Source: Raillietiella orientalis
Lineage: Eukaryota
DNA: 40,354 nucleotides
Reading direction: 5' to 3'
Assembly (NCBI GenBank): GCA_036172245.1
Contig: JAYWIR010000179.1
Location: 1-40,354 of the forward strand
Shown here: in pieces, positions 241-40,354 of the stretch
How positions within the stretch are numbered: position 1 is the first letter of the stretch
How the letters are laid out: the number at the start of each line of letters is the position of its first letter
Notes under the pieces: model-generated
Told to the model about the DNA's origin: nothing
The model's input: the letters and a program-made list of their open reading frames with translations, nothing else
Databases searched by the model: none
Translations under genes and position numbers: made by a program

Positions 241-271
241 TTGCCACCCAAGTACGCCCGGGGCGTTTATT
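241..271 (-). terminator. 3' terminal AATAAA + hairpin of A
   Basis: AATAAA CG CCCCGG GCGTA CTTGGG T GGCAA. Confidence 0.75.
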
Positions 272-4122: not shown

Positions 4123-4285
4123 TGCCAAGAATCTCCTCCCGCCGTCGTCTGCGCATCGCCGTTTGCAACGCGAACGGCATGACAGACGCCGGCAGGAGAC
4201 GAGACATGGCCGCCCTTCTGGAGTCTTACGACCTTGCGCTGCTGCAGGTGATCCACGTGATCTCTGCAGAAGAAGCGCAGGAGAT
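4122..4285 (+). pseudogene. Element B ORF2 piece 1 (AP endonuclease N-terminus)
   Basis: MPRISSRRRLRIAVCNANGM...LLQVIHVISAEEAQEI, interrupted by C. Confidence 0.85.
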
Positions 4286-4315
4286 TTCTCACCCGGTCAT
4301 GCCGGGGCGTTTATT
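4286..4315 (-). terminator. 3' terminal AATAAA + hairpin of C
   Basis: AATAAA CG CCCCGG CATGA CCGGG T GAGAA. Confidence 0.8.
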
Positions 4316-4639
4316 CCATATAACATAACCAAAAGAAAACCAGTTATACAAAATAAACCAGTTGGGAACCAAACTCCCAACCGACGACTGAACAAGAATG
4401 AAGAGAATATTGCTGGCACGCAGGCCAGAGTAAAAGTTTTGTGAACGGTGTGGAAGGGCAGGGAACACAAAGAAACCAAAATAAAATAAAAACAATAAAT
4501 AAGGAGGACGGGATAAGGGTCTTTGGGATCGCTCTGGAAGACACGGGGATAAAAGCATGGGCACCGGAAATTTTCCGAGGGAACGGGGATGGGGTATAAG
4601 TGGGCGAGAGGTCGCAGGGGTCACCGGATAACGGTGTTC

Positions 4640-7600
4640 TCAAAGGTCTGTAAACCGGCGATGTATGCCGCTGATGTCCTCATTAAACTTGTCACGAAGA
4701 TGAGACCACCTTGAAGCCTTCTCCATGAATTGAGCTGCAAGCAGGTGAGCCTCCTTTCGCTGCGCTGACAACTCCAGGGCGCAGCGGGCCTTCACGATGG
4801 CGCGAACGCAACACATAGTTGCGACAATCGCGCCAACCGAAAGTCCATTTCTGCTGAAGAAGCGCCGCAGCACATCAATGGCAGTGCCTCCTTGTGGCAT
4901 GATGGCCGGAATGAGCCTTCGCCACAGTTCCCGGAGGTCACCGCAGTCCAGCAAAAGGTGCGGAAAAGACTCGATCTCTCCGCACCTTAAACAGTTTGGC
5001 AAAGCAGCTCCCCCGAAAACGATGCTTCGCTTCCTAATACAGTGTAATGCACAATGTAAAAAGAGCAGCACATCTTGTTTCCACTGAAGGGGGAACACGG
5101 AGCTGTCCAAACAAACGGGAAGAACCACTATCTCTCCGGAGGGCACACTTCAATGTTCGCTCCACCGAAGCAGGCCCTTCGCCCGATTCCGAGGTGTGGC
5201 GGCTTGCACCAGCTCCTTTGTCGTCCAGCTGCCGAGGAGCTTACTGACTCCCGCTATTTAGCAGGAGAACTCCCATTCTGCCGGTAGGCAACCGTCGTTG
5301 CGTGCCCTGAGGGCAGACAGCGCTGCGGCGAGTGGTGTGGCGGCCAGACGATCCGACAACTTCTTGTCCTGCATGACTTCGTCCATTTGATGACTGAGGA
5401 GAAGTCGCAGGCGTCGAAGATCTTCCAAGCGCGTTCCTTCGGAAGCTGCCCACGATGAAAAAGATTCCTGTCGCTATGCATTAATGTTCATGGGGCTGCA
5501 GGAGATCCAGATTTGGGCTTCCAGCAGTGAGGACAGCTGCCTCAGCGGAAAGCCAAACCCTATTCTGATGTGTCGAAATCAGTCCCTCGCTTCACGAGCA
5601 GCGCCTCAGTATAAGGCGTGCGGGTAAGCACCAGGGCGTACACCACAGCTTGGGACAGAGCCGCAGCATGCGAAACTGCACCTGCAGTTCGATGCTCTTT
5701 AAGTCGAGGATGCCCAAGCCTGCATCCTGACGCGGCGCCACCAAGTCTTTAAGTCTAACACGGGATCTTGCAGCGCCCCACAGCGCTTTGCGTAGAAAGC
5801 GCTGCGCCCAGACTTTCACTTCCTGAGGGGGTGGAAAAACAAAAAACAAAGGGCGGAGTAGGGGGGCAACGAAGGTGTTCCAGATGCAGGCCCGTTCCGG
5901 CAAGACGAACTCGCCTCCTGAAAACGGGCCAAGTGCACGCTCTGCCTTCCGAAGGCAGTCCGACCACGCTTCTGAGTTGCAGAAGTCGCTCAACGGCACG
6001 CCAAGGTACCTGAGGGACCTGCCCGTGGGGATCCCCAGGTCGATCCAGTCGGACTGCCCCTCCCACGTCGCACCAACCGGAACAACCATACACTTACTCC
6101 TGTTAACGCTCACGCCCGCACCGCGACGAATCAACTCAAAGAAGTCTTCAAGCGATGTCGCCGGGGTGGACATGGGCAACAGGAGAAGCAGGTCGTCGGC
6201 ATAGGCTGCCACGGCCGGCGTACCTGGACAGGAGCTCGGCAGGTTGGCTAGCGTCAGCCTGTAAGCCTCCAGCACCAATTCGAAACAGATGCTGAAGAGC
6301 AGCGGGCTTAAGCTATCACCCTGCCTAATTCCTCGTCGTACCGGCACGCCATACACGTGACAGCCACTGAAAACAATGGATGTAATCGCGTGGCGCCAGC
6401 AGGAGCGCAAGTACGCCAACAGGGATGCAGGAAGACACAGACGTTCCAAAAGCTCAAGAAGAAGCTTTTGGTTCACGCAATCGAAAGCTTTGTGCAAATC
6501 GACTGCAACCGCCAAGGCTCCCGGTGTCTCCCTTTGCGTTTCGCGCCTCCGTCGGTGAGAGATCGAAGGCGTCGCTTCCGCACGACGATCCACCGCCACA
6601 CGATGCTGCAATTGCAGCCATGTGCGGATGAACAAGAGATTCGCGTCCATGGACCGCCCAGGAACAGCGTACGTCTGCTCCGGACTTACCAAGGATTCCG
6701 CGATCCTACTCATCCGCGCCACCCAAAGTTTCGAGAGCAACTTGACGTCCGAATTCACTAATGTGATCGGACGCCAGTTGTTCAGTTGGCGCAAATCTCC
6801 GCCTTTCGGCAGTAGACGCACCTTCGCTGAGCGAAACGAGGCGGGGACATCGCCCGAGTCTCGCATCAGCGACGAGAGTTGGAGCACCAGCGGGATGAGC
6901 TCCGCCGCAAAACACTGAAAGAATTCCGCGGGGAGCCCATCTTCGCCTGGCGCTTTTCGTCTCTTGAGCCCCGTGATGGCCGAGGAAATTTTCTCTGTTG
7001 TGAAGGGCTCATCAAGACGCGCGCGTTCCTATTCGTCTGCAACAGGTGCATCAATCGGCAGAAGCACCCGAGAGAGGCTGCGTTCCGTCGGTGCCTCTGC
7101 ATACAGAGAAGAGTAATAGCGCCTGACTATCCGTCGCACGTCGGCTGGAGCCGAGCATTCCCGGTCCTGGTCGTCGAGCCGAACTGTCGACCCTGACTGC
7201 CAGACCTCGCGCTCGGCCTTGGCTTTGAAATCGGATAATCGACCAACGTCCGCGCGCCTGGAAAAGGAGCGGGCCTTCAGAAAATCTCTGCTGTTGGCTA
7301 CGCCCTCTCCGAAGCCGCGCGGAAGCTGGTGCAAGGGAAACCGGCAGCAGAACTCGCGGACCGATCTTTTCAGCCGTCCCAGTCCTCGAGCTCACTTATG
7401 GCAAAGCCGAGGAGGTACTGGCGAAGATGCTCAGCCGCCTCCGGGTGGCTTAGCCAGTCTCCCGGTTTCCTCCAAAAACAGTTTGGAGGCCCCTTGCCTG
7501 GCGGGAGCAACTCGAACTCGAGCCTGTTGTGGTCAGAAAGCACGGACGGCACGGGACCTCTCCGACCCACTCGACAGAGCAAGTGTTCATCCAGATATAC

Positions 7601-8194
7601 GTGGTCCGGCGTTGCTGCCATAACAGGGTCGCTAGCGAACAAGTTGCACGCGTGCACGGACTCGCACATCTCTTCCGCTAGCAACTTTTCCCTTTTGTGG
7701 GATCTATTCTCGGAAAGCAGGTGGACGTTAAAGTCCCCCGCAATGAGATGGGCCACAGTAGGGTGAAATCGAGTGAGCCACTGGCTTTGAAGGGTACCAA
7801 AGGACTCAATCCTTTCGGCCCATCGTCCAAAACCGCTCGGCGCGTACACGTTGGTTACGACAAGGTCGATCGAGTCGGACCACTTGAGTACAAGCTGTCC
7901 CACTCGACCTTCCGTGTCGAAACGAACACTGCGCACCGCTCCCGCCAAAGTTCCTCGCACGAGGAAAGCGACGCCGCACGTACGTGCAACGCCGCACCTA
8001 TAAAGTAGCGTTCCGCCCGCGCGCCGTTCGCTTTCGGCAGCCTGCTCTCCGGAGATGCTGTGAATCTCCTGCAGGAGCGTCAAGTCGAAGGCACGCAGAA
8101 CGTCAGCCACTAGTCGCCTCTTCTCCTCGTTCTGGAGCCCGTTGACGTTCCAAGACGTTACGGCAACACGACGAGAAGACGCGATTGCCCTCAT
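4640..8194 (-). pseudogene. Element C ORF2 (endonuclease, RT, zinc finger), frameshifted
   Basis: SWNVNGL, LQEIH, AGDFN, LSDH; DLHKAFD, RGIRQGDSLSP, YADD; CLRCGEIESFPHLLLDC. Confidence 0.9.
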
Positions 8195-10097
8195 CACTGC
8201 TGGGAAAGCGAGGCCGTGCTGCTCGCCTCACTCGGCGAGCGGGCAGTAAGCAGCACGACGGGCTGGAGGGCGCGGTCGCCACCGGCCTCAACTGTGCTGC
8301 ACGTAATCGGGTGCTCCTCCCCGGGTTCAGGACCTGTGGGTTCCGGGGAAGCACTCGCCGTTCCGCGGCGAGTATGTCACGCCTCAGGGCTTCAGCCCTG
8401 CGGGCGCTCGCTCCCGCGCGAGTAACGCGTCGTTCAGCGGCGCTATCGGACTCCTTTGCGGAGTCTGATGCTCGCACGATCGACGTGCGCTTGCATCCGT
8501 CCGATTGCACCGGAATGGTCTTCTCGGCGGTCACAGAAGCGGACTTGCACGCGTTGAAGGCGCTGGCTTTTTCCTTAGAAGAGGCACAAGCCGCGCGTGT
8601 TTTCGTATTCCCTCGACTGCTTTTTCCTTTGGAAGAGCTCAGGGATGGATGTTGCGGAGCTTTTTTTGGAGATTTTTCTTTCCTACTCTCCACAATCTTT
8701 TATACGCTTTCGCGATTTTCGGAGGCTTCCGCGACAGTAGTTGCGGAAACCTCCGGGATTTTCGCTGCGTTCTCTGAGGGCGTTGCTTTCGCTACGCATT
8801 TAAAAGGCGGCAACGGAGTCACCTTCTTGACAGTCAAGAGATTGCTCCTCTCCTGCCGAGTCGGCGATGGGGCGACTGCATGCAGCGTGCTTTTGCTCGT
8901 TGCGACGCTGCTTTTTACGGCTTTCGTAGCCTTTGCAGAGGGGCTTGCGCTGCAGTGGAGCTGTCCGGAACTCGGAAGGGACAACGGAACGGCGCAAGAA
9001 GTCTTCCCACTGTTGCGATCTTCCTGTTTTCCTACCTTTCTCACCAGGGTGTTACGGAGATTTCCTGGTTCCTGGCTCGGAGAGGTGCCTGCGAGTTCGG
9101 CAGAGAGGGAAGACACGGCACGCGTCAAACCCTCACGCCCCTTTTTCATTGGCTTCCCCGCCGTCACCTTCCCCTTTCGGGGCGTTGCGGGCGGGGATGC
9201 TTTCTTTTCATCCGCGGATCGCTCGTGGTTTTTTGCGAGTTTTCGCGGACGACGTTTTTTATTTGCCGCTGCGGCTTTTCGTGCAGTGGTCTCTTGAACC
9301 CGACGAATTTCTGCTGCGGCTCTTTTTCTTGCAAGTACCGGGCACTTTTTGATTTCGTGCCCGGAATCTTTGCAATAGCGGCATCTTGGAGAGGGGCACT
9401 CTTTAATTCGGTGGCCATCCTTGCCGCACTGCTTGCACGCGCGAGTCTGGCCTATGAATCACAGGTGAACGACCGTGCCGTTCACCTGCAGCTGCTCAGG
9501 CACAACACGCCTGTTCGCGACGGTGATCCGCGCGGAGGCTTGTCCAATGTGGACAGAGGGGAAATCCTTTAGAGGATTTGGTCTCCTCCACAAAGCGTGC
9601 ACTGTGGCGAACTTTGCCAGCACACTTACGACATCGCGGTTGGAGATTTCCGGTTCGATGTCGGACAATTGAACGACAAAATAGTCGTTCATCGCGGTAG
9701 GTAGGACTTCCTTGCCATTCATGGTCAACGGCGTACGAAGAAGGCGCTGCACAAGTGCTGCGTTCTTGCACCGAATCTTCGTATATTCCATCCTGCCAGC
9801 AGGCATTATGGCAAGGAGTTCCTCCTCGCGAACGCCGATCCGGACGTGCTCATCATTGAGCTCACGACCGATTCTCCCGTTGAGGGGCCCACTGACCTTA
9901 TAACGGAGTGCAGGCATGTATCCTGATGACACATATGCCTGGAACTCCGCATCGCAGGGTCCTGGTCTTTGGGAGGTAACGGCGGCGTAACTCCTCACCG
10001 GGGGCGAGGACACCATTACGGAGGATGGGGCCAATTCAAGTGCAGCTGAAGTGCATCCAGTGGCTTGCTCTTCTACACTATTTTGTGTACTGGCCAT
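8194..10097 (-). pseudogene. Element C ORF1 (zinc-knuckle protein with long K/A/S-rich tail), stop at 9459 plus later disruptions
   Basis: MASTQNSV...HL*FIGQTRACKQCGKDGHRIKEC...CRYCKDSGHEIKKC, ending in the TGATG overlap at 8192-8196. Confidence 0.85.
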
Positions 10098-12620
10098 GTT
10101 GCACTATGCTACTTGGCAGATTGCACAGGAACACACAACTGCGAGCTAAAACGCGGGCACAAAGTTGCCCGATCGTTGGCGCTGATAGACGCGGATACAC
10201 GTCTGCACTGTACGAGCCCGGGAGATGAAACGCATCTCCGGAGGGCGGCTATGGTACAGGTGTGGGAGAGCGAAAAGTTGCGGTGTCGCCTACCTGCTTT
10301 GGCCAGCCGTCGAGGCCGCGGCTCGGGGCGTACGGTTCGACGATCACGGTCTTGTCGGCCAGCTGACTCTCAGTTGGTCCGACTCGATCGACCTCATCAT
10401 CACGATCGGTTACGCGCCGAGCGGAGCGGACCTGACGAACAGGAGGTCCAGCAAAGAATTTTTCCTTGCTCTCCATCGCGACTGGTTGACCGAGGCAGGC
10501 GTGCGGAATGCCCATCTGGTTGCAGGCGATTTTTACGTTCGTCTGAAACCGGATGGGTCCAATCACGAGCGGAACCTAGTCTACAAGGTGTGCCAGGAGG
10601 TGCACACTTGTAATTTGTTGGTCAGTGTACCAGGGATAGAGGACAACATCGATCACGTGTTTCTTGACGAGCACCTGTGCACTCGTGTGGGTAAGCGCTG
10701 CAAGTTACCGTGCGAGTTGTCCGAACATCGACAAATCGTGATTGAAATCCATCCGCGCGACAGGGGCCCCCCTCGTCAGCGTGGCGTTTGCCAGGGGACT
10801 GGCTTAAGCTTCCGGACGCGACGGAACATCTCCGCACGTTCATACGGAGCTTCAGGATGCAGACACTTCAGGATTTCGACCGCTTAGAACGGTCGGTCCA
10901 GGAGTTCTGCGACCAGTTCCTTCTGCACCGCTTACCTACGGGTTTTGGGACCTGGGTCCGTAACGAACGAGCCTACCTGCAGGCCCGTCGTTTCGCCAGG
11001 ACCCCCGACATCCGCAGACTGGCGGAATACAAAGCGGGAGCCGAGAGGCAAGCCTGGCAGTCAGGATCGGCCAGCCTGCTGGACGATCAGGGCCAGGAGC
11101 ATTCGGCACCCGCTCAGATCCGCGGTCTGCTGTGGCGTTTTTACTCCTACCTGTACGCAAGAACGTCTCCCGAGCGAGATTTCTCCCGACTTCTGCTTCC
11201 GGAAGGCGCTCCTGCGAACGGGGAAGAGGAGAAAAAGTCCCTCAACGAGCATTTCACGATGGGCGAGATTATCTCGTCCATCGGAAAGCTCAAGAGGCGC
11301 AAGGATCTAGGGGAGGACGGCCTGTCCGCGGAGTTTTATCAAACTTTCGAGGCTGAGCTAACCACCCTGGTACAACAACTCACCTTGCTGTTACGCGAGA
11401 CAGGTGACGTTCCCGCCTCGTTTCGTTCGGCAAAGGTGCGCCTTCTCTCTAAGGGAGGAGATCTGAGAAGCTTCAACAACTGGCGTCCCATGACAATAGT
11501 GAATGCGGATGCCAAGTTGACATCTAAGGCTTGAGCTGAGCGCATGGGACGGGCTGCAAACCCCTTCATCAGCCCGGAACAGACGTATGCTGTTGCGATG
11601 CGAAGCATGGAGGCGAACCTATTCCCCGCTTCCACCTGGCTAGAGCTTCAACATGAAAGGAGCTTGGTGCGCAGCCGGAATTCCGGTGCGTGCGCCGGCA
11701 AGGGGTTGGATGGTCGGGTGGGGGAGGGAGCCCTTGCGGTCGCAATCGACTTGGAAAAGCATTCGATTGTGTCGACCAGAATCTCCTTCTGGAGCTTCTG
11801 GAACGCTTGGACTTCCCGGCCTCATTAGTGGCCTATCTGCACTCCTGCTAGCGCGACGCGCTCATCAATGTTACTTTCAGCGGGCAGACCGTGCACGGCG
11901 TGCCGGTACGGCGTGGGATCCAAAAGGGAGACAGCCTGAGCCCCTTGCTCTTCAGTACCTACTTTGAGCTGGTACTGAGAGCGTACAGGGGAACTCTGGC
12001 GCACTTGCCGCACGACTGTGCCGGTACGCCGGCCGTTTCAGCATACGCGGACGACCTTTTGCTGCTGCTCCCTATGTCTACCCCGGCTTTGGCGGTCAAG
12101 GAGTTCTTCGACCTGCTGCATCGGGGAACCGGACTTACGGTGAACAGGGCGAAGTCGTCCGTGATGCCAGTTGGTGCGGCGTGGGCAGGGCAGCAGGACT
12201 GGGTCCGTTTGGGGATCCCCACAATGAGGTACTTCAAGTACCTTGGTGTGGTTGGGGGACTACTCCCCTGCGGAAGCGTGGTCCGGCTGCCTCCAAAAAG
12301 TAGAGACGGCGATCGGCCCGTTCCGAGGCGGCAGGTTTTTCCTGCCTGAACGGGCCGCGGTTTGGAACACGTTCGCGGCTTCTCTCCTCTGTTCCCTGCT
12401 TTTTGTTTGCCCCCCCACAGAGAGGATTAAAAAGCGGACCAAGGACCTCCTCCGTATCGCCCTTTGGGGCAACGGGAGGGCCCGAGTCCGCTTAAAGGAC
12501 TTGTGCGCTCCTCGTCGGGAAGGTGGTCTGGGCCTCCTGACGCTGGAGCGACTGGAGCTTTAGCTCCAGTTCCGCTTGTCGGCACTCGTTCCAGAGTTGT
12601 GGTGCACCTGTTGGTGCGAC
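8857..12620 (+). repeat. Left arm of a large inverted repeat (partner ~36590-40354) spanning the C/B junction
   Basis: Near-identical ORFs on opposite strands (e.g. 10225..10887 vs 38324..38986), with shared stops and frameshifts. The right boundary is approximate. Confidence 0.9.
10198..10204 (-). promoter_or_regulatory. DPE-like RGACGTG motif at the 5' end of C
   Basis: AGACGTG 10 nt inside the end. Confidence 0.55.
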
Positions 12621-13640
12621 CCTGCACGTCTCCTTCTCCAGCAAGCCACCGGCAAGACGGGACTGAGGTCGTTTCTTGCACTCCTTCGCCGCGTCAACCG
12701 ATGCGGACTCCAGCTACGGAGGGTGGCTGCGCTGTATCGGAAAAACCCAGGATTGCTCACCTGTCGCCCGTTGAACGGTAGTGCCTGGTTGCAGGAAACC
12801 GTTCGAACGTGAAGACAGTTCGGCATGTAACGCTCCCAACAGGAACGAAGGTTCCTGTTTGGGGGTTACAGAAGTTGCACGCTCCGCGAGATCCTGGAGG
12901 ATCCAAAGAAGAGAGCGTGGGCAGGAAGAACCCCCCTCGCTGCTGCGCTGCCCTCCCTGATGGAAGATCTGGACAGCGATGTTGCGGCGAAGTAAAAGGT
13001 TTTTGTTAGAATCTCCGGAAAGGAGAAGAAGATAGGAGAGTGGAAGACGGGCCAGTTAACAGACGCTGCGTCCCCGAGTACGCCTCCCAATGGACTTCTG
13101 CGCTGGGGCGCGCTGCTCGATGTTCCCATTGAACATCTAAAGTGGCCCCCGGTGCTCATGAACACTTCCGGACTTCCCTTAAAATGGCAGGAGTCGGCTC
13201 TCCTGTTGCAGCACTGGGGACTCCCCTGCAACGCCCGCCGACACCACTGGAACTGGGAAGCGGTGGACCCCAATTGCGTCAGGTGTGGGGAACGGGAGTC
13301 CCTCCCCCACCTGCTAGTGGATTGTGTTGCCCTTCGTCCCCTTTGGTTTCGCTTTGCCGCGGCCATCGGAATCCCATGCAACAACCGCAGGGACGCACTG
13401 AAAGCCCTCTTCGTTGCCAACGCCCTTCGGCCAGCGGCCTTGTTAGCAGCTTTGTGCTGCCTACACGGGATCGTCACCGCTTGGAGCAAGGCTACGGGAG
13501 GACAACGCGACCAGGGTGCCATCTAGCCAACCTCCCAGTCCCTGAGGAGGGCGTCCCGATGGCCCCACCTGGATCCCGGAATACAGAAGGAGCTTGCCGG
13601 CATCCTGCAAAGGATGCAACGGCCCCACCAGCAACTGTGA
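10215..13640 (+). pseudogene. Element B ORF2 piece 2 (rest of endonuclease, RT, zinc finger), multiple stops and frameshifts
   Basis: YAPSG, AGDFY, NWRPMTIVN, RGIQKGDSLSP, AYADD and CVRCGERESLPHLLVDC occur across ORFs from 10225 to 13526. Confidence 0.88.
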
Positions 13641-13827
13641 CCCCTTCCCTTACCCTCCCAACTTTTCTTTTCTTTTTTGTTTTGTTTTTTGTTTTTCCCC
13701 CTTCCCTGTTCTGCCGTGGTGGACTGTACCGGTCTGCGAACTGGTGACCCGGCAGGCTCTGTGTTTCTTCGTGCGTGGCTGGAGCAATGGTGCAGCCACC
13801 GCACGTCTTTGTAAAAGTTTATTTTAC

Positions 13828-13858
13828 AATAAACGCCCCGGCGAAATCCGAGTGAAAA
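13828..13858 (+). terminator. 3' terminal AATAAA + hairpin of B
   Basis: AATAAA CG CCCCGG CGAAAT CCGAG T GAAAA. Confidence 0.8.
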
Positions 13859-14783
13859 TCGAACGCCTTGTGGAGATCGACTGCGAGCCCTAGGGCCCCC
13901 TTCCCTGCCCGGGGGTCCCTTCCCAGCCCGGCTGGCGGCCCCAATGTGGGGTTGCCGACTTTCCCTATCCCTTTCTTTTCTCTTCTCTGTAGGTGCACCC
14001 ATGTGCTTGCGAAGAAGAGGTTGGCATCCATACTTCGCCTGGGAACAGCATAATTCTTCTCCGGGCTAATTACGGATTCTGCCACCTGCCCCAGACGCGA
14101 AGCCCATAGCCCTGCGATCAACTTGACGTAAGTATTCACGATCGTGATCGGACGCAAGTTCTTTAAATTCCTGAGGTCTCCCCCTTTCGGAAGGAGCCTC
14201 ACTGTGGCTGACCGAAAGGAGGCGGGAACATCGCCTTAGTCTCGGATCAGCCTGATCAACTTAAGCAGCAGGGGTGCCAGCTCTTCCGCGAAGCTCTGAA
14301 AGAACTCCGCGGGCAAGCCGTCTTCCCCTGGAGCTTTACGTCTCTTGAGCCTTTTGATACCGGCGAGAATTTCGCCGGTGTTAAAAGGCTTGTCGAGGCT
14401 TTCCATCTCCTCCTCCCCTATTGCCGAGCGCCATCCGGAAGCAAGCGCCGAGAGGCGTTTCGATCCGGGGGCTCCCTGGCGTAAAGGGAGGAATAGAAAC
14501 TCCGCACGAGATGCCGTACCGACGCCGGGGACGAAAATTCCCGGCCCTGGTCGTCCAGCAAGCTGGCCGACCCGGATTGCCAGGTTTGGCGTTCGGCCCT
14601 GGCGCGGTACTCGGCCAGGCGACGGACATAAGGGGTTCTCTCGTACCTACGAGCCTGTAAATAGGCCCGATGGTTGCGAGCACCCTAGCGGAATCCGGGG
14701 GGCAGGCGATCCAGGGGGAACTGCTCACAGAACTCGCGGACCGATTTCTTAAAAAGGTCCCAGTCCTGGAGATTCCGGAGCGT
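13859..14783 (-). pseudogene. Element A ORF2 piece 3 (linker and RT N-terminal half)
   Basis: TLRNLQDWD...KRRKAPGEDGLPAEF...LLPKGGDLRNLKNLRPITIVN...AVDLHKAFD, bounded by the TSDs of D and B. Confidence 0.88.
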
Positions 14784-19668: not shown

Positions 19669-19698
19669 TTTACACCCGGATGCGCCGGGGCGTTTATT
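19669..19698 (-). terminator. 3' terminal AATAAA + hairpin of F
   Basis: AATAAA CG CCCCGG CGCAT CCGGG T GTAAA. Confidence 0.8.
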
Positions 19699-25160: not shown

Positions 25161-25608
25161 GTCGGCACTGCTGGTGTTGCATTGGGGGCTTCCTTGCCAC
25201 GCCCGCCGACACCACTGGACGCGGGGGGGTGTCAACCCTAATTGTGTCAGTTGCGGGGAGAGGGAATACCTCCCCCACCTGTTAGTGGATTGTGTTGCCC
25301 TCCGTCCCTTGTGGGAACGCTTTGCCGCAGCCCTGGGGATCCCCGGGGGCAACCCCAGAGACTCTTTGCGCCCCGTCTTCGTCCGTGACGCCCTGCCTCT
25401 ATCGGCCTCGCTTGCAGCCCTGTGCTGCCAACGCAAGATCGTCGTGGCATGGAGCAAAGCGACAGGAGGATCCAGCGACAGGGATGCCAACGTGTATGCC
25501 GCCCGTTTCCTCAGGATAGCGACGCGATGGCCCCATCTGGAACCACACAAGCAGAAACAGCTTGCCGGCATCCTCCAGAGGATGACGGACCCTCCCAGCA
25601 GACTCTGA
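25161..25608 (+). pseudogene. Element D ORF2 piece 2 (C-terminal zinc finger)
   Basis: SALLVLHWGLPCHARR...CVSCGEREYLPHLLVDC...ILQRMTDPPSRL*. Confidence 0.9.
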
Positions 25609-25790: not shown

Positions 25791-25820
25791 AATAAACGTC
25801 CCGGCGCACCCGGGTTTCAA
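25791..25820 (+). terminator. 3' terminal AATAAA + hairpin of D
   Basis: AATAAA CG TCCCGG CGCAC CCGGG T TTCAA. Confidence 0.8.
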
Positions 25821-26163: not shown

Positions 26164-26193
26164 TTATCACCCGGTCACGCCGGGGCGTTTATT
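26164..26193 (-). terminator. 3' terminal AATAAA + hairpin of E
   Basis: AATAAA CG CCCCGG CGTGA CCGGG T GATAA. Confidence 0.8.
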
Positions 26194-32069: not shown

Positions 32070-32538
32070 GATTGAAATCTCCCGCTATGAGGTGAGCCTT
32101 CCGCACGCTCGTGTTCGCCAGCCAGTCGCGCTTCAAGGATTCAAGCAGCCTGGTACGGTTGCTGTATCCCTTTTGACCGGTTGGGGCGTACACATTCGTG
32201 ACGATCAGATCGATCGAGTCCGACCAGCCGAGAGTCAGCTGACCGACCCGACCGTCGTCATCGAAGCGCACGCCCTTCACGGCAGCGTCGATGGCCGGCT
32301 TCACGAAGAACGCGACCCCGCAGGTGTTGCGGAGGCCGCATCGCCAATACAGCCGACCCCTTGCGATCGTCTCGATTTCCTGGGCGTCTGCCGCAGTGAT
32401 CACGTGGATCTCCTGCAGCAGCGCCAGGTCGAGCTCACGCAGGGTGTCGGCTGTATCTCGCCTGTTGCCGTCGTCGCGCAGCCCGTTGACGTTCCAACAG
32501 ACCGCGCGAATCCGACGGCGACTGGCGAGCCCAGGTGT
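32070..32538 (-). pseudogene. Element A ORF2 piece 1 (AP endonuclease N-terminal part)
   Basis: Motifs CWNVNGL, LLQEIH, TNVYAP and AHLIAGDFN. The start codon is mutated (TAACA instead of TAATG). Interrupted by E. Confidence 0.88.
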
Positions 32539-35348: not shown

Positions 35349-35379
35349 TTTTTACCCGGATTACCTCGGGTCGTTTATT
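35349..35379 (-). terminator. 3' terminal AATAAA + hairpin of G
   Basis: AATAAA CG ACCCG AGGTAATC CGGGT AAAAA. Confidence 0.8.
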
Positions 35380-39113: not shown

Positions 39114-40354
39114 ATGGCCAGTACACAAAATAGTGTAGAGGAGCAAGCCACTGGATGCACTTCAGCTGCACTTGAATTGGCCCCATCCTCCGTAATGGTG
39201 TCCTCGCCCCCGGTGAGGAGTTACGCCGCCGTTACCTCCCAAAGACCAGGACCCTGCGATGCGGAGTTCCAGGCATATGTGTCATCAGGATACATGCCTG
39301 CACTCCGTTATAAGGTCAGTGGGCCCCTCAACGGGAGAATCGGTCGTGAGCTCAATGATCAGCACGTCCGGATCGGCGTTCGCGAGGAGGAACTCCTTGC
39401 CATAATGCCTGCTGGCAGGATGGAATATACGAAGATTCGGTGCAAGAACGCAGCACTTGTGCAGCGCCTTCTTCGTACGCCGTTGACCATGTATGGCAAG
39501 GAAGTCCTACCTACCGCGATGAACGACTATTTTGTCGTTCAATTGTCCGAAATCGAACCGGAAATCTCCAACCGCGATGTCGTAAGTGTGCTGGCAAAGT
39601 TCGCCACCGTGCACGCTCTGTGGAGTAGGCCAAATCCTCTAAAGGATTTCCCCTCTGTCCACATTGGACAAGCCTCCGCGCGGATCACCGTCGCGAACAG
39701 GCGTGTTGTGCCTGAGCAGCTGCAGGTGAACGGCACGGTCGTTCACCTGTGGTTCATAGGCCAGACTCGCGCGTGCGAGCAGTGCGGCAAGGATGGGCAC
39801 CGAATGAAAGAGTGCCCCTCTCCAAGATGCCGCTATGGCAAAGATTCCGGGCACGAAATCAAAAAGTGCCCGGTACTTGCAAGAAAAAGAGCCGCAGCAG
39901 AAATTCGTCGGGTTCAAGAGACCACTGCACGAAAAGCCGCAGCGGCAAATAAAAAACGTCGTCCGCCAAAACTCGTAAAAAACCACCAGCGATCCGCGGA
40001 TGAAAAGAAAGCATCCAAGCCCGCAACAATCCGAAAGGGGAAAGTGACGGCGGGGAAACCAATGAAAAAGGGGCGCAAGGGTTTGACGCGTGCCGTGTCT
40101 TCCCTCTCTGCCGAACTCGCAGGCACCTCTCCGAGCCAGGAACCAGGAAATCTCCGTAACACCCTGGTGGGAAAGGTAGGAAAACAGGAAGATCGCAACA
40201 GTGCGAAGACTTCTTGCGCCGTTCCGTTGTCCCTTTCGAGTTCCGGACAGCCCCACTGCAGCGCAGGCCCCTCTACAAAGGCTACGAAAGCCGTAAAAAG
40301 CAGCGTCGCGACGAACAAAAGCACGCTGCATGCAGTCGACCCATCGCCGACTCG
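39114..40354 (+). CDS. Element C' ORF1 (zinc-knuckle protein), apparently open to the window end
   Basis: ATG at 39114 (MASTQNSV...). It has TGG where C has TGA, and the second knuckle reads CRYGKDSGH (Cys to Gly). Confidence 0.75.
   Translation, partial: MASTQNSVEEQATGCTSAALELAPSSVMVSSPPVRSYAAVTSQRPGPCDAEFQAYVSSGYMPALRYKVSGPLNGRIGRELNDQHVRIGVREEELLAIMPAGRMEYTKIRCKNAALVQRLLRTPLTMYGKEVLPTAMNDYFVVQLSEIEPEISNRDVVSVLAKFATVHALWSRPNPLKDFPSVHIGQASARITVANRRVVPEQLQVNGTVVHLWFIGQTRACEQCGKDGHRMKECPSPRCRYGKDSGHEIKKCPVLARKRAAAEIRRVQETTARKAAAANKKRRPPKLVKNHQRSADEKKASKPATIRKGKVTAGKPMKKGRKGLTRAVSSLSAELAGTSPSQEPGNLRNTLVGKVGKQEDRNSAKTSCAVPLSLSSSGQPHCSAGPSTKATKAVKSSVATNKSTLHAVDPSPT

Follow-up and report, generated by a model that had tools for sequence, protein, structure and literature searches.

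The window, that is, the whole analyzed stretch of 40,354 nt from the 210-Mb genome of Raillietiella orientalis, consists of nested non-LTR retrotransposons with a CCHC-containing ORF1 and an ORF2 that encodes an APE endonuclease, a reverse transcriptase (RT), and a zinc finger. Element A lies in a host copy, elements B, D, and E lie in A, C lies in B, F in D, and G again in a host copy. Six of the seven insertions in the window are antisense to their own host, with A and G placed without support from a target-site duplication (TSD). Bases at the 3′ terminus are numbered from the one that follows the sequence G(G/A)GT (+1). The features of element C and the termini of the other elements are as follows.

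4310..4315, minus strand: AATAAA hexamer of element C (pattern match)
4291..4309, minus strand: palindrome of element C, CG-C-CCCGG-CATGA-CCGGG-T, with a predicted 5-bp stem
4286..4290, minus strand: five terminal element-encoded bases of element C, GAGAA, the last base at 4286 (from the TSD start at +6)
4273..4285, minus strand: 3′ copy of the TSD of element C, located where element B encodes its endonuclease (C inserted antisense)
10214..10226, minus strand: 5′ copy of the TSD of element C, 10/13 matching, then the GACGTGT 5′ motif near 10204
4316..4642, minus strand: T-rich 3′ UTR of element C (from the sequence)
4643..8227, minus strand: ORF2 of element C, APE endonuclease and RT, frameshifted
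8703..10103, minus strand: ORF1 of element C, CCHC zinc knuckle, interrupted
241..271, minus strand: terminus of element A, GGCAA, stem decayed; first base of AATAAA at 271; TSD not found
13828..13858, plus strand: terminus of element B, GAAAA; first base of AATAAA at 13828; 5′ TSD copy at 2339, 12/13
19669..19698, minus strand: terminus of element F, GTAAA; first base of AATAAA at 19698; 12-bp TSD, 12/13, 5′ copy at 25172
25791..25820, plus strand: terminus of element D, TTCAA; first base of AATAAA at 25791; 17-bp TSD, 13/13, 5′ copy at 14767
26164..26193, minus strand: terminus of element E, GATAA; first base of AATAAA at 26193; 9-bp TSD candidate, 9/13, 5′ copy at 32078
35349..35379, minus strand: terminus of element G, AAAAA; first base of AATAAA at 35379; TSD not found

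With the G at 4290, the stem of element C is predicted to extend to 7 bp with one bulge. At the opposite end, full-length copies keep an RGACGTGT motif 4–12 nt inside their 5′ end (positions 2364, 10204, 14789, 25156, 32063, and 39007 of the window), which is a candidate internal promoter element. Positions 8857–14627 resemble positions 40354–34583, with 94–100% identity over the first 3.7 kb and then only 57–73% at the 3′ end and flank, a pattern of partial duplication, conversion, or recombination. We considered the B and G ends as one duplicated insertion and rejected this, because 3′ ends and flanks of such low identity place the two junctions in different host copies.

The 3′ terminus in the window and across the genome

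The initial annotation had described seven 3′ ends with their terminal 5-mers, and all of them are present (GGCAA, GAAAA, GAGAA, TTCAA, GATAA, GTAAA, and AAAAA). The fixed spacing that it had claimed is found as well, since every one of the seven elements stops 24 or 25 nt past AATAAA. A strict terminus pattern matches four times in the window and not once in 100 shuffles. The 3′ UTRs, which had been called divergent, are mostly unrelated, but those of B, D, and G proved detectably related at 56–68%. Over the 100 nt upstream of the seven ends, pairwise identity is 48–68%, compared with a mean of 49% and a maximum of 55% in shuffles.

Across the genome, the pattern AATAAACG-N-CCYGR-N3-9-CYKRGT has 2,129 matches, with none in the control; genome-wide match counts for repeats are lower bounds. 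Without the stem constraints, the pattern gives 3,112 matches versus 171 in the control. The number of five bases after the palindrome is fixed, but their last base is not always A as had been expected from the window: NNNAA follows in 1,823 of the 2,129 matches (86%), and NNNAT in 163 (8%). Individual ends were taken from 99 regions around the first 100 matches listed on contig C1, not picked by their tail, which together with the window yielded 105 distinct ends. A larger set of 133 ends consists of these 105 and of loci picked for variant hexamers or A-runs. Position +1 is usually G (91/105 ends), and a G at this position can lengthen the stem.

The absence of a poly(A) tail, also part of the initial annotation, holds in other copies. 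We looked there for variable poly(A), and a looser pattern, in which AATAAA was not required and NNN plus eight A's had to follow, returned only seven matches genome-wide. In the 128 ends that had not been picked for A-runs, the run of A's starting at +6 has a length of 0 in 84, 1 in 40, 2 in 3, and 3 in 1.

An exact AATAAA lies immediately 5′ of 1,170 of the 1,485 perfect hairpins in the genome (79%), and among 20 examined hairpins that lack it, most are preceded by one- or two-base variants of the hexamer. At four loci (L134, L146, L148, and L149), a perfect hairpin plus tail is found with a degenerate or absent AATAAA; some of these may be extremely 5′-truncated insertions of about 25 nt. 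Motif scans for the terminus gave no match in viral contigs and 23 matches in metagenome contigs, none of them beside an L1-like ORF and all taken as chance, and a protein-alignment scan of the metagenome contigs for relatives confirmed none.

The boundary between element and target

In the window, five of the seven ends have a recognizable 5′ copy of the TSD, each beginning at +6, and none was found for A and G. TSDs are 9–17 bp long, and many copies are short and 5′-truncated. An unanchored search of the 105 ends recovered an exact upstream match of 11 nt or more in 39. These matches begin at +6 in 16 ends, at +5 in 5, at +4 in 1, at +8 in 3, and elsewhere in 14, the last group being tandem insertions at an existing junction, or chance. 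When the search was anchored only on the exact TSD core from +8 to +15, an upstream match was obtained for 36 of the 133 ends, a few of them probably by chance and most of them belonging to short, 5′-truncated copies. At positions +1 to +5, the two copies agree in 8, 6, 9, 7, and 9 of these 36 ends, which is the chance level, and agreement jumps to 29 and 26 at +6 and +7. The element stops at +5 past the palindrome, and the target begins at +6. Because the TSDs begin there, the five terminal bases are part of the element, and we rejected the terminal AA as target sequence on the same ground.

The five terminal bases are inherited by subfamily. Positions +1 to +3 are the same in 65% of 48 pairs whose UTRs are at least 90% identical and whose flanks are unrelated (these pairs are not independent of each other) and in 6% of 7,464 pairs with unrelated UTRs. 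One subfamily ends in GTCAA in 9/9 copies, and most of the listed NNNAT ends stem from a single GGCAT subfamily. A TSD was identified in 9 of a sample of 30 GGCAT copies, and the base preceding its 5′ copy is T in six and C, A, and G in three; in three further AT-ending copies, this base is T, T, and C. A terminal T is hence found where the target base is not T in 4/12 copies (L201, L209, L221, and L081, with C, A, G, or C in the target). Since the T is absent from the target in these copies and poly(A) polymerase cannot add T, the RNA must be templated up to +5 or further. No base is copied from a tail, and poly(A) does not supply the last one. A terminal AA derived from poly(A) is therefore not supported as a general rule.

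In the GGCAT subfamily, 8/12 copies have a T in the target just ahead of the TSD; this excess may come from a preference of the endonuclease or from an overlap of one base between element and target. At one locus (L051, G000:C1:2162237), the UTR of the GGCAT subfamily is joined to the loop, tail, and target of another subfamily, possibly through a template switch.

The predicted terminal hairpin in two lineages

The CCCGG/CCGGG stem encloses a loop of 5 nt in 113 of the 133 ends and of 6 nt in 19, and prediction allows the stem to be lengthened by G-U and C-G pairs that flank a variable bulge. The stem had been described as largely kept, and it is nearly invariant, but the test for covariation suggested along with this description showed none: 0 of 7 pairs changed on both sides in 29 diverse ends, which were pattern-selected, part of the stem being fixed by the pattern. 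No recurring compensatory variant was seen among 100 of the 3,112 stem-unconstrained matches read by eye. At one CpG pair, 82 matches carry the G-U-compatible variant and 71 the A-C mismatch (p = 0.42), so that the test for G-U tolerance gave no excess of G-U-compatible over A-C variants; as both are equally common, the stem variants resemble what decay of inserted copies would produce. For four of five ends, the folding z-scores are weak (−0.8 to −1.6), with −3.95 for the fifth, and the core stem has a pair probability of >0.5 in 77 of the 133 ends when folded with upstream context. An upstream helix that would pair with AAUAAA was not adopted, since it is predicted in only 57 of the 133 ends. 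Given the lack of covariation in the window lineage, we only infer the hairpin at the RNA level, and the invariance of the stem points to a putative sequence-specific readout. Rfam returned no match at the gathering score in the window, including the histone 3′ stem-loop.

When the genome was searched at the protein level with a distant L1-like query, 42 of 4,314 candidates were scored, and the 13 without internal stops were examined. They represent a few subfamilies with 58–99% identity.

L180–L192, contigs C2, C19, C33, C35, C51, C71, C74, C107, C150, and C306 of this genome (G000): second lineage, ORF2 frames of 1,120–1,810 amino acids from stop to stop

In all 13 copies, as read directly from the sequence, AATAAA is separated by four bases from a bulged CCCCA...TGGGG hairpin, about four further bases complete the element without a tail, and none of the 13 carries the CCCGG motif. 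The exact end of this lineage is less well defined than that of the window lineage; its terminus has 186 matches genome-wide. The ORF2 of the second lineage is 25–30% identical to that of the window (about 26%). In a FastTree phylogeny of 41 RT sequences, the backbone of which is poorly resolved, the window and the second lineage are sisters with a support of 0.998. As the sister lineage has an unrelated hairpin in the same layout, the layout and not the sequence is the common property, and from this comparison the layout is probably old. In one subfamily of the second lineage, a compensatory CCG/CGG pair is found, with 7/8 CCG arms facing CGG, which amounts to one event.

Several copies of the second lineage (L180, L181, L182, L185, L187, and L192) are arranged head to tail or with very long flanking repeats (37, 47, and 194 bp), which suggests tandem arrays or self-targeting. 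Downstream of L188 lies an AT-rich flank that opens with an ATGATGA box.

Affiliation, initiation of reverse transcription, and target choice

The proteins contain the Pfam domains zf-CCHC, Exo_endo_phos, RVT_1, and zf-RVT, the last just below the cut-off. As in the L1 group, an ORF1 precedes an ORF2 with an N-terminal APE endonuclease, an RT, and a C-terminal zinc finger, and TSDs and 5′ truncation occur. The closest solved structure is human L1 ORF2p (E = 2.5e-41, versus 2e-16 for R2), and the RT of the window is placed among fish, plant, and oomycete L1-like RTs in the 41-sequence tree with its poorly resolved backbone. The nearest database relatives are 22–30% identical, save one metagenome fragment at 57%. 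A target sequence preference, as in the Tx1 clade, is present; the RT tree contained no labeled Tx1 sequence. The variable poly(A) tail that is the hallmark of relaxed mammalian-type L1 is absent, and a 3′ terminal sequence conserved across diverged families, a feature of stringent-type LINEs, is present. The family is an L1-group (L1/Tx1) element that behaves like a stringent LINE and not like a relaxed, poly(A)-primed L1.

The published systems are compared here as they appear in excerpts of the cited papers. LINE 3′ boundaries may consist of poly(A), short repeats, or neither, and recognition of the 3′ UTR is the rule outside mammalian L1 (reviewed in PMC2881922); stringent LINEs recognize 3′ stem-loops (PMC3747384). 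Among L1-clade elements, the monocot lineage 1a / LINE1-1_ZM and Chlamydomonas L1-1_CR are stringent and have a 3′ hairpin (PMC3747384). An L1-clade ORF2, a short conserved hairpin-capable 3′ sequence, and a divergent remainder of the UTR are common to them and to the window family. Whereas the stem of monocot 1a / L1-1_CR covaries and L1-1_CR ends in poly(A) (PMC3747384), the stem described here is fixed in sequence, lies 2 nt downstream of AATAAA, and has exactly five inherited bases and no tail behind it. With Tx1L, Keno, Kibi, Koshi, and Tx1-Mar, the family shares APE and RT domains, a CCHC ORF1, family-specific targets, and insertion into transposons; SINEU, a proposed passenger of Tx1-Mar, carries a poly(A) tail (PMC4494074). 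Vertebrate L1 has the same domain order, an AATAAA near the 3′ end, and TSDs, but its end consists of AATAAA and a poly(A) tail, in which priming takes place (PMC5381506, PMC3649969), whereas neither a tail nor an A-rich TSD start is found here. R2 and R1Bm likewise have precise 3′ junctions that are set by 3′ RNA elements (PMC3649969, PMC7265360), R2 priming without complementarity (PMC3649969) and R1Bm requiring downstream target sequence for accurate reverse transcription (PMC7265360). Both belong to other clades and are rDNA-specific, in contrast to the Pol II-type AATAAA and the many short targets of the window family. The L2-clade UnaL2 and the I factor share the non-poly(A) ends and stringent recognition, but end in the short repeats TGTAA and TAA (PMC3747384), which are not seen here.

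The fixed tail-less end suggests that the copying enzyme measures its start point from the hairpin, which would sharpen a strategy already described for other LINEs; the surprise is limited in that hairpin-marked and tail-less LINE ends are already known in general. A literature search by title and abstract start found no description of an L1 end that is templated, tail-less, and exact to the base; similar Tx1 ends may be described in Repbase, subscription papers, or supplements, which were outside its scope.

Of the initially proposed start at a measured distance from the hairpin, what stands is that the fixed, tail-less end is encoded by the element and keeps the same distance to a conserved palindrome in diverged subfamilies, as would be predicted for a start anchored on a hairpin. 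We give an even chance to a mechanism in which the hairpin serves ORF2p as an anchor for starting at a fixed base, and in which endonucleases specific to each subfamily choose the targets; the RNA and protein steps of this mechanism are deduced from the junction anatomy that we observe. Pol II transcripts would be processed via AAUAAA, and ORF2p would bind the adjacent AAUAAAC-G hairpin by sequence and shape. It would then keep the +5 base in the RT active site and disregard poly(A) or flank beyond. The endonuclease of the subfamily would nick a preferred site, priming would proceed without pairing of poly(A) to a T-tract, and a second nick 9–17 bp away would give rise to the TSD.

DNA alone cannot tell such an RT ruler from a fixed RNA end. 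It is unlikely, although by no means negligible, that the RNA itself ends at +5, with AAUAAA and the hairpin directing a precise cut, a tail of the transposition-competent RNA never being added or being trimmed back, and RT starting at the RNA 3′ end as in R2. This would agree with the AATAAA kept in 79% of perfect hairpins and would account for tails being so rare and for the scarcity of evident 3′ transductions (133 ends gave four far matches, of which none is a clear transduction). The usual cleavage window past AAUAAA includes 24–25 nt, which fits the spacing found. Histone mRNAs have no tail and are trimmed back to a protected hairpin with an invariant stem followed by 4–5 nt, and the sequence-invariant stem plus 4–5 nt resembles this arrangement, although the likeness is geometric only. 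However, cleavage directed by AAUAAA is normally coupled to polyadenylation, the window has no match to any Rfam family, and of the seven ends with eight A's a TSD candidate was found only for L151, where it is an A-run as well, so that the other six may be rare copied tails. The related idea that the RNA is cleaved after +3 and that RT copies exactly two A's of a poly(A) tail would explain the A at +4 in 100/105 and at +5 in 96/105 ends. We regard it as very improbable, as starts within a tail are expected to vary in length and T occupies +5 in the 163 ends that come mostly from the GGCAT subfamily, including the four copies with C, A, G, or C in the target (L201, L209, L221, and L081).

Rather improbable, too, is an R1Bm-like process, in which the RNA would read through into the TSD of its parent and these bases would pair with the nicked target, masking the RNA end and rendering the target motif heritable. 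Positions +6 to +9 are indeed identical in 52% of close pairs with unrelated flanks versus 1% of unrelated pairs, repeat insertions at an existing 3′ junction occur (L048, L051, L103, and L118), and in a few TSD pairs a difference at +6 leaves the 3′ copy nearer to the subfamily motif (L070, L079, L204, and L212), which would parallel the downstream requirement of R1Bm (PMC7265360, in excerpt). Other mismatches go the opposite way (L056, L069, and L195), and preferences upstream of the nick (G at −1; pyrimidine-rich in GGCAT copies) lie beyond any RNA-primer pairing. The constant +5 end in every subfamily would be left unexplained, so that a ruler would still be needed. We attach hardly any weight to a palindrome that works as double-stranded DNA, such as a host-factor binding site or a terminator-like element. 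An invariant stem sequence without covariation would suit such a role, but the palindrome is fixed in position relative to the cDNA start, and the hairpin of the sister lineage is bulged and non-symmetric, with the compensatory pair (7/8 arms, one subfamily, one event).

For poly(A) priming, L1-type enzymes are the textbook example, and to our knowledge the choice of the first template base by a LINE RT is known for few elements. It is possible, if doubtful, that poly(A) priming was dropped altogether in a deep branch of the L1 group that comprises the two sister lineages (about 26% ORF2 identity). Its RT would start at a measured base without pairing of RNA and target, which would free the endonuclease to change its target with each subfamily and leave scar-free 3′ junctions, an L1-type enzyme thus priming like R2. 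Thousands of natural insertions give a base-exact junction without a tail, and natural variants (the GGCAT end, the 5- and 6-nt loops, and the second hairpin type) are ready-made controls. If the ruler model is true, it would explain the quick divergence of target choice between subfamilies, and an L1-type enzyme with clean 3′ junctions would be on offer.

The motifs at the TSD start differ by subfamily (TCGA, CCAGTG, ACAAC, CYAGC, and CGCCG) and are not A-rich; CGCCG is the consensus of the 30 GGCAT copies. Over the 105 ends, the +6 base is A in 35, C in 40, G in 6, and T in 24, so that an A-rich TSD start is not found. A bias upstream of the nick also depends on the subfamily, with G at −1 in 4/4 GGCAA/CYAGC copies and a pyrimidine-rich sequence in GGCAT copies, although these numbers are small. 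Targets that differ on both sides of the nick would be as endonuclease choice predicts. Target preference is known for Tx1-clade elements (PMC4494074), and endonuclease-based target choice has been described (PMC1950540), both cited from excerpts. A regular expression for the endonuclease specificity loop found nothing. Copies of the C subfamily are inserted antisense at identical endonuclease codons in different host copies (L031, L034, and window positions 4273–4285).
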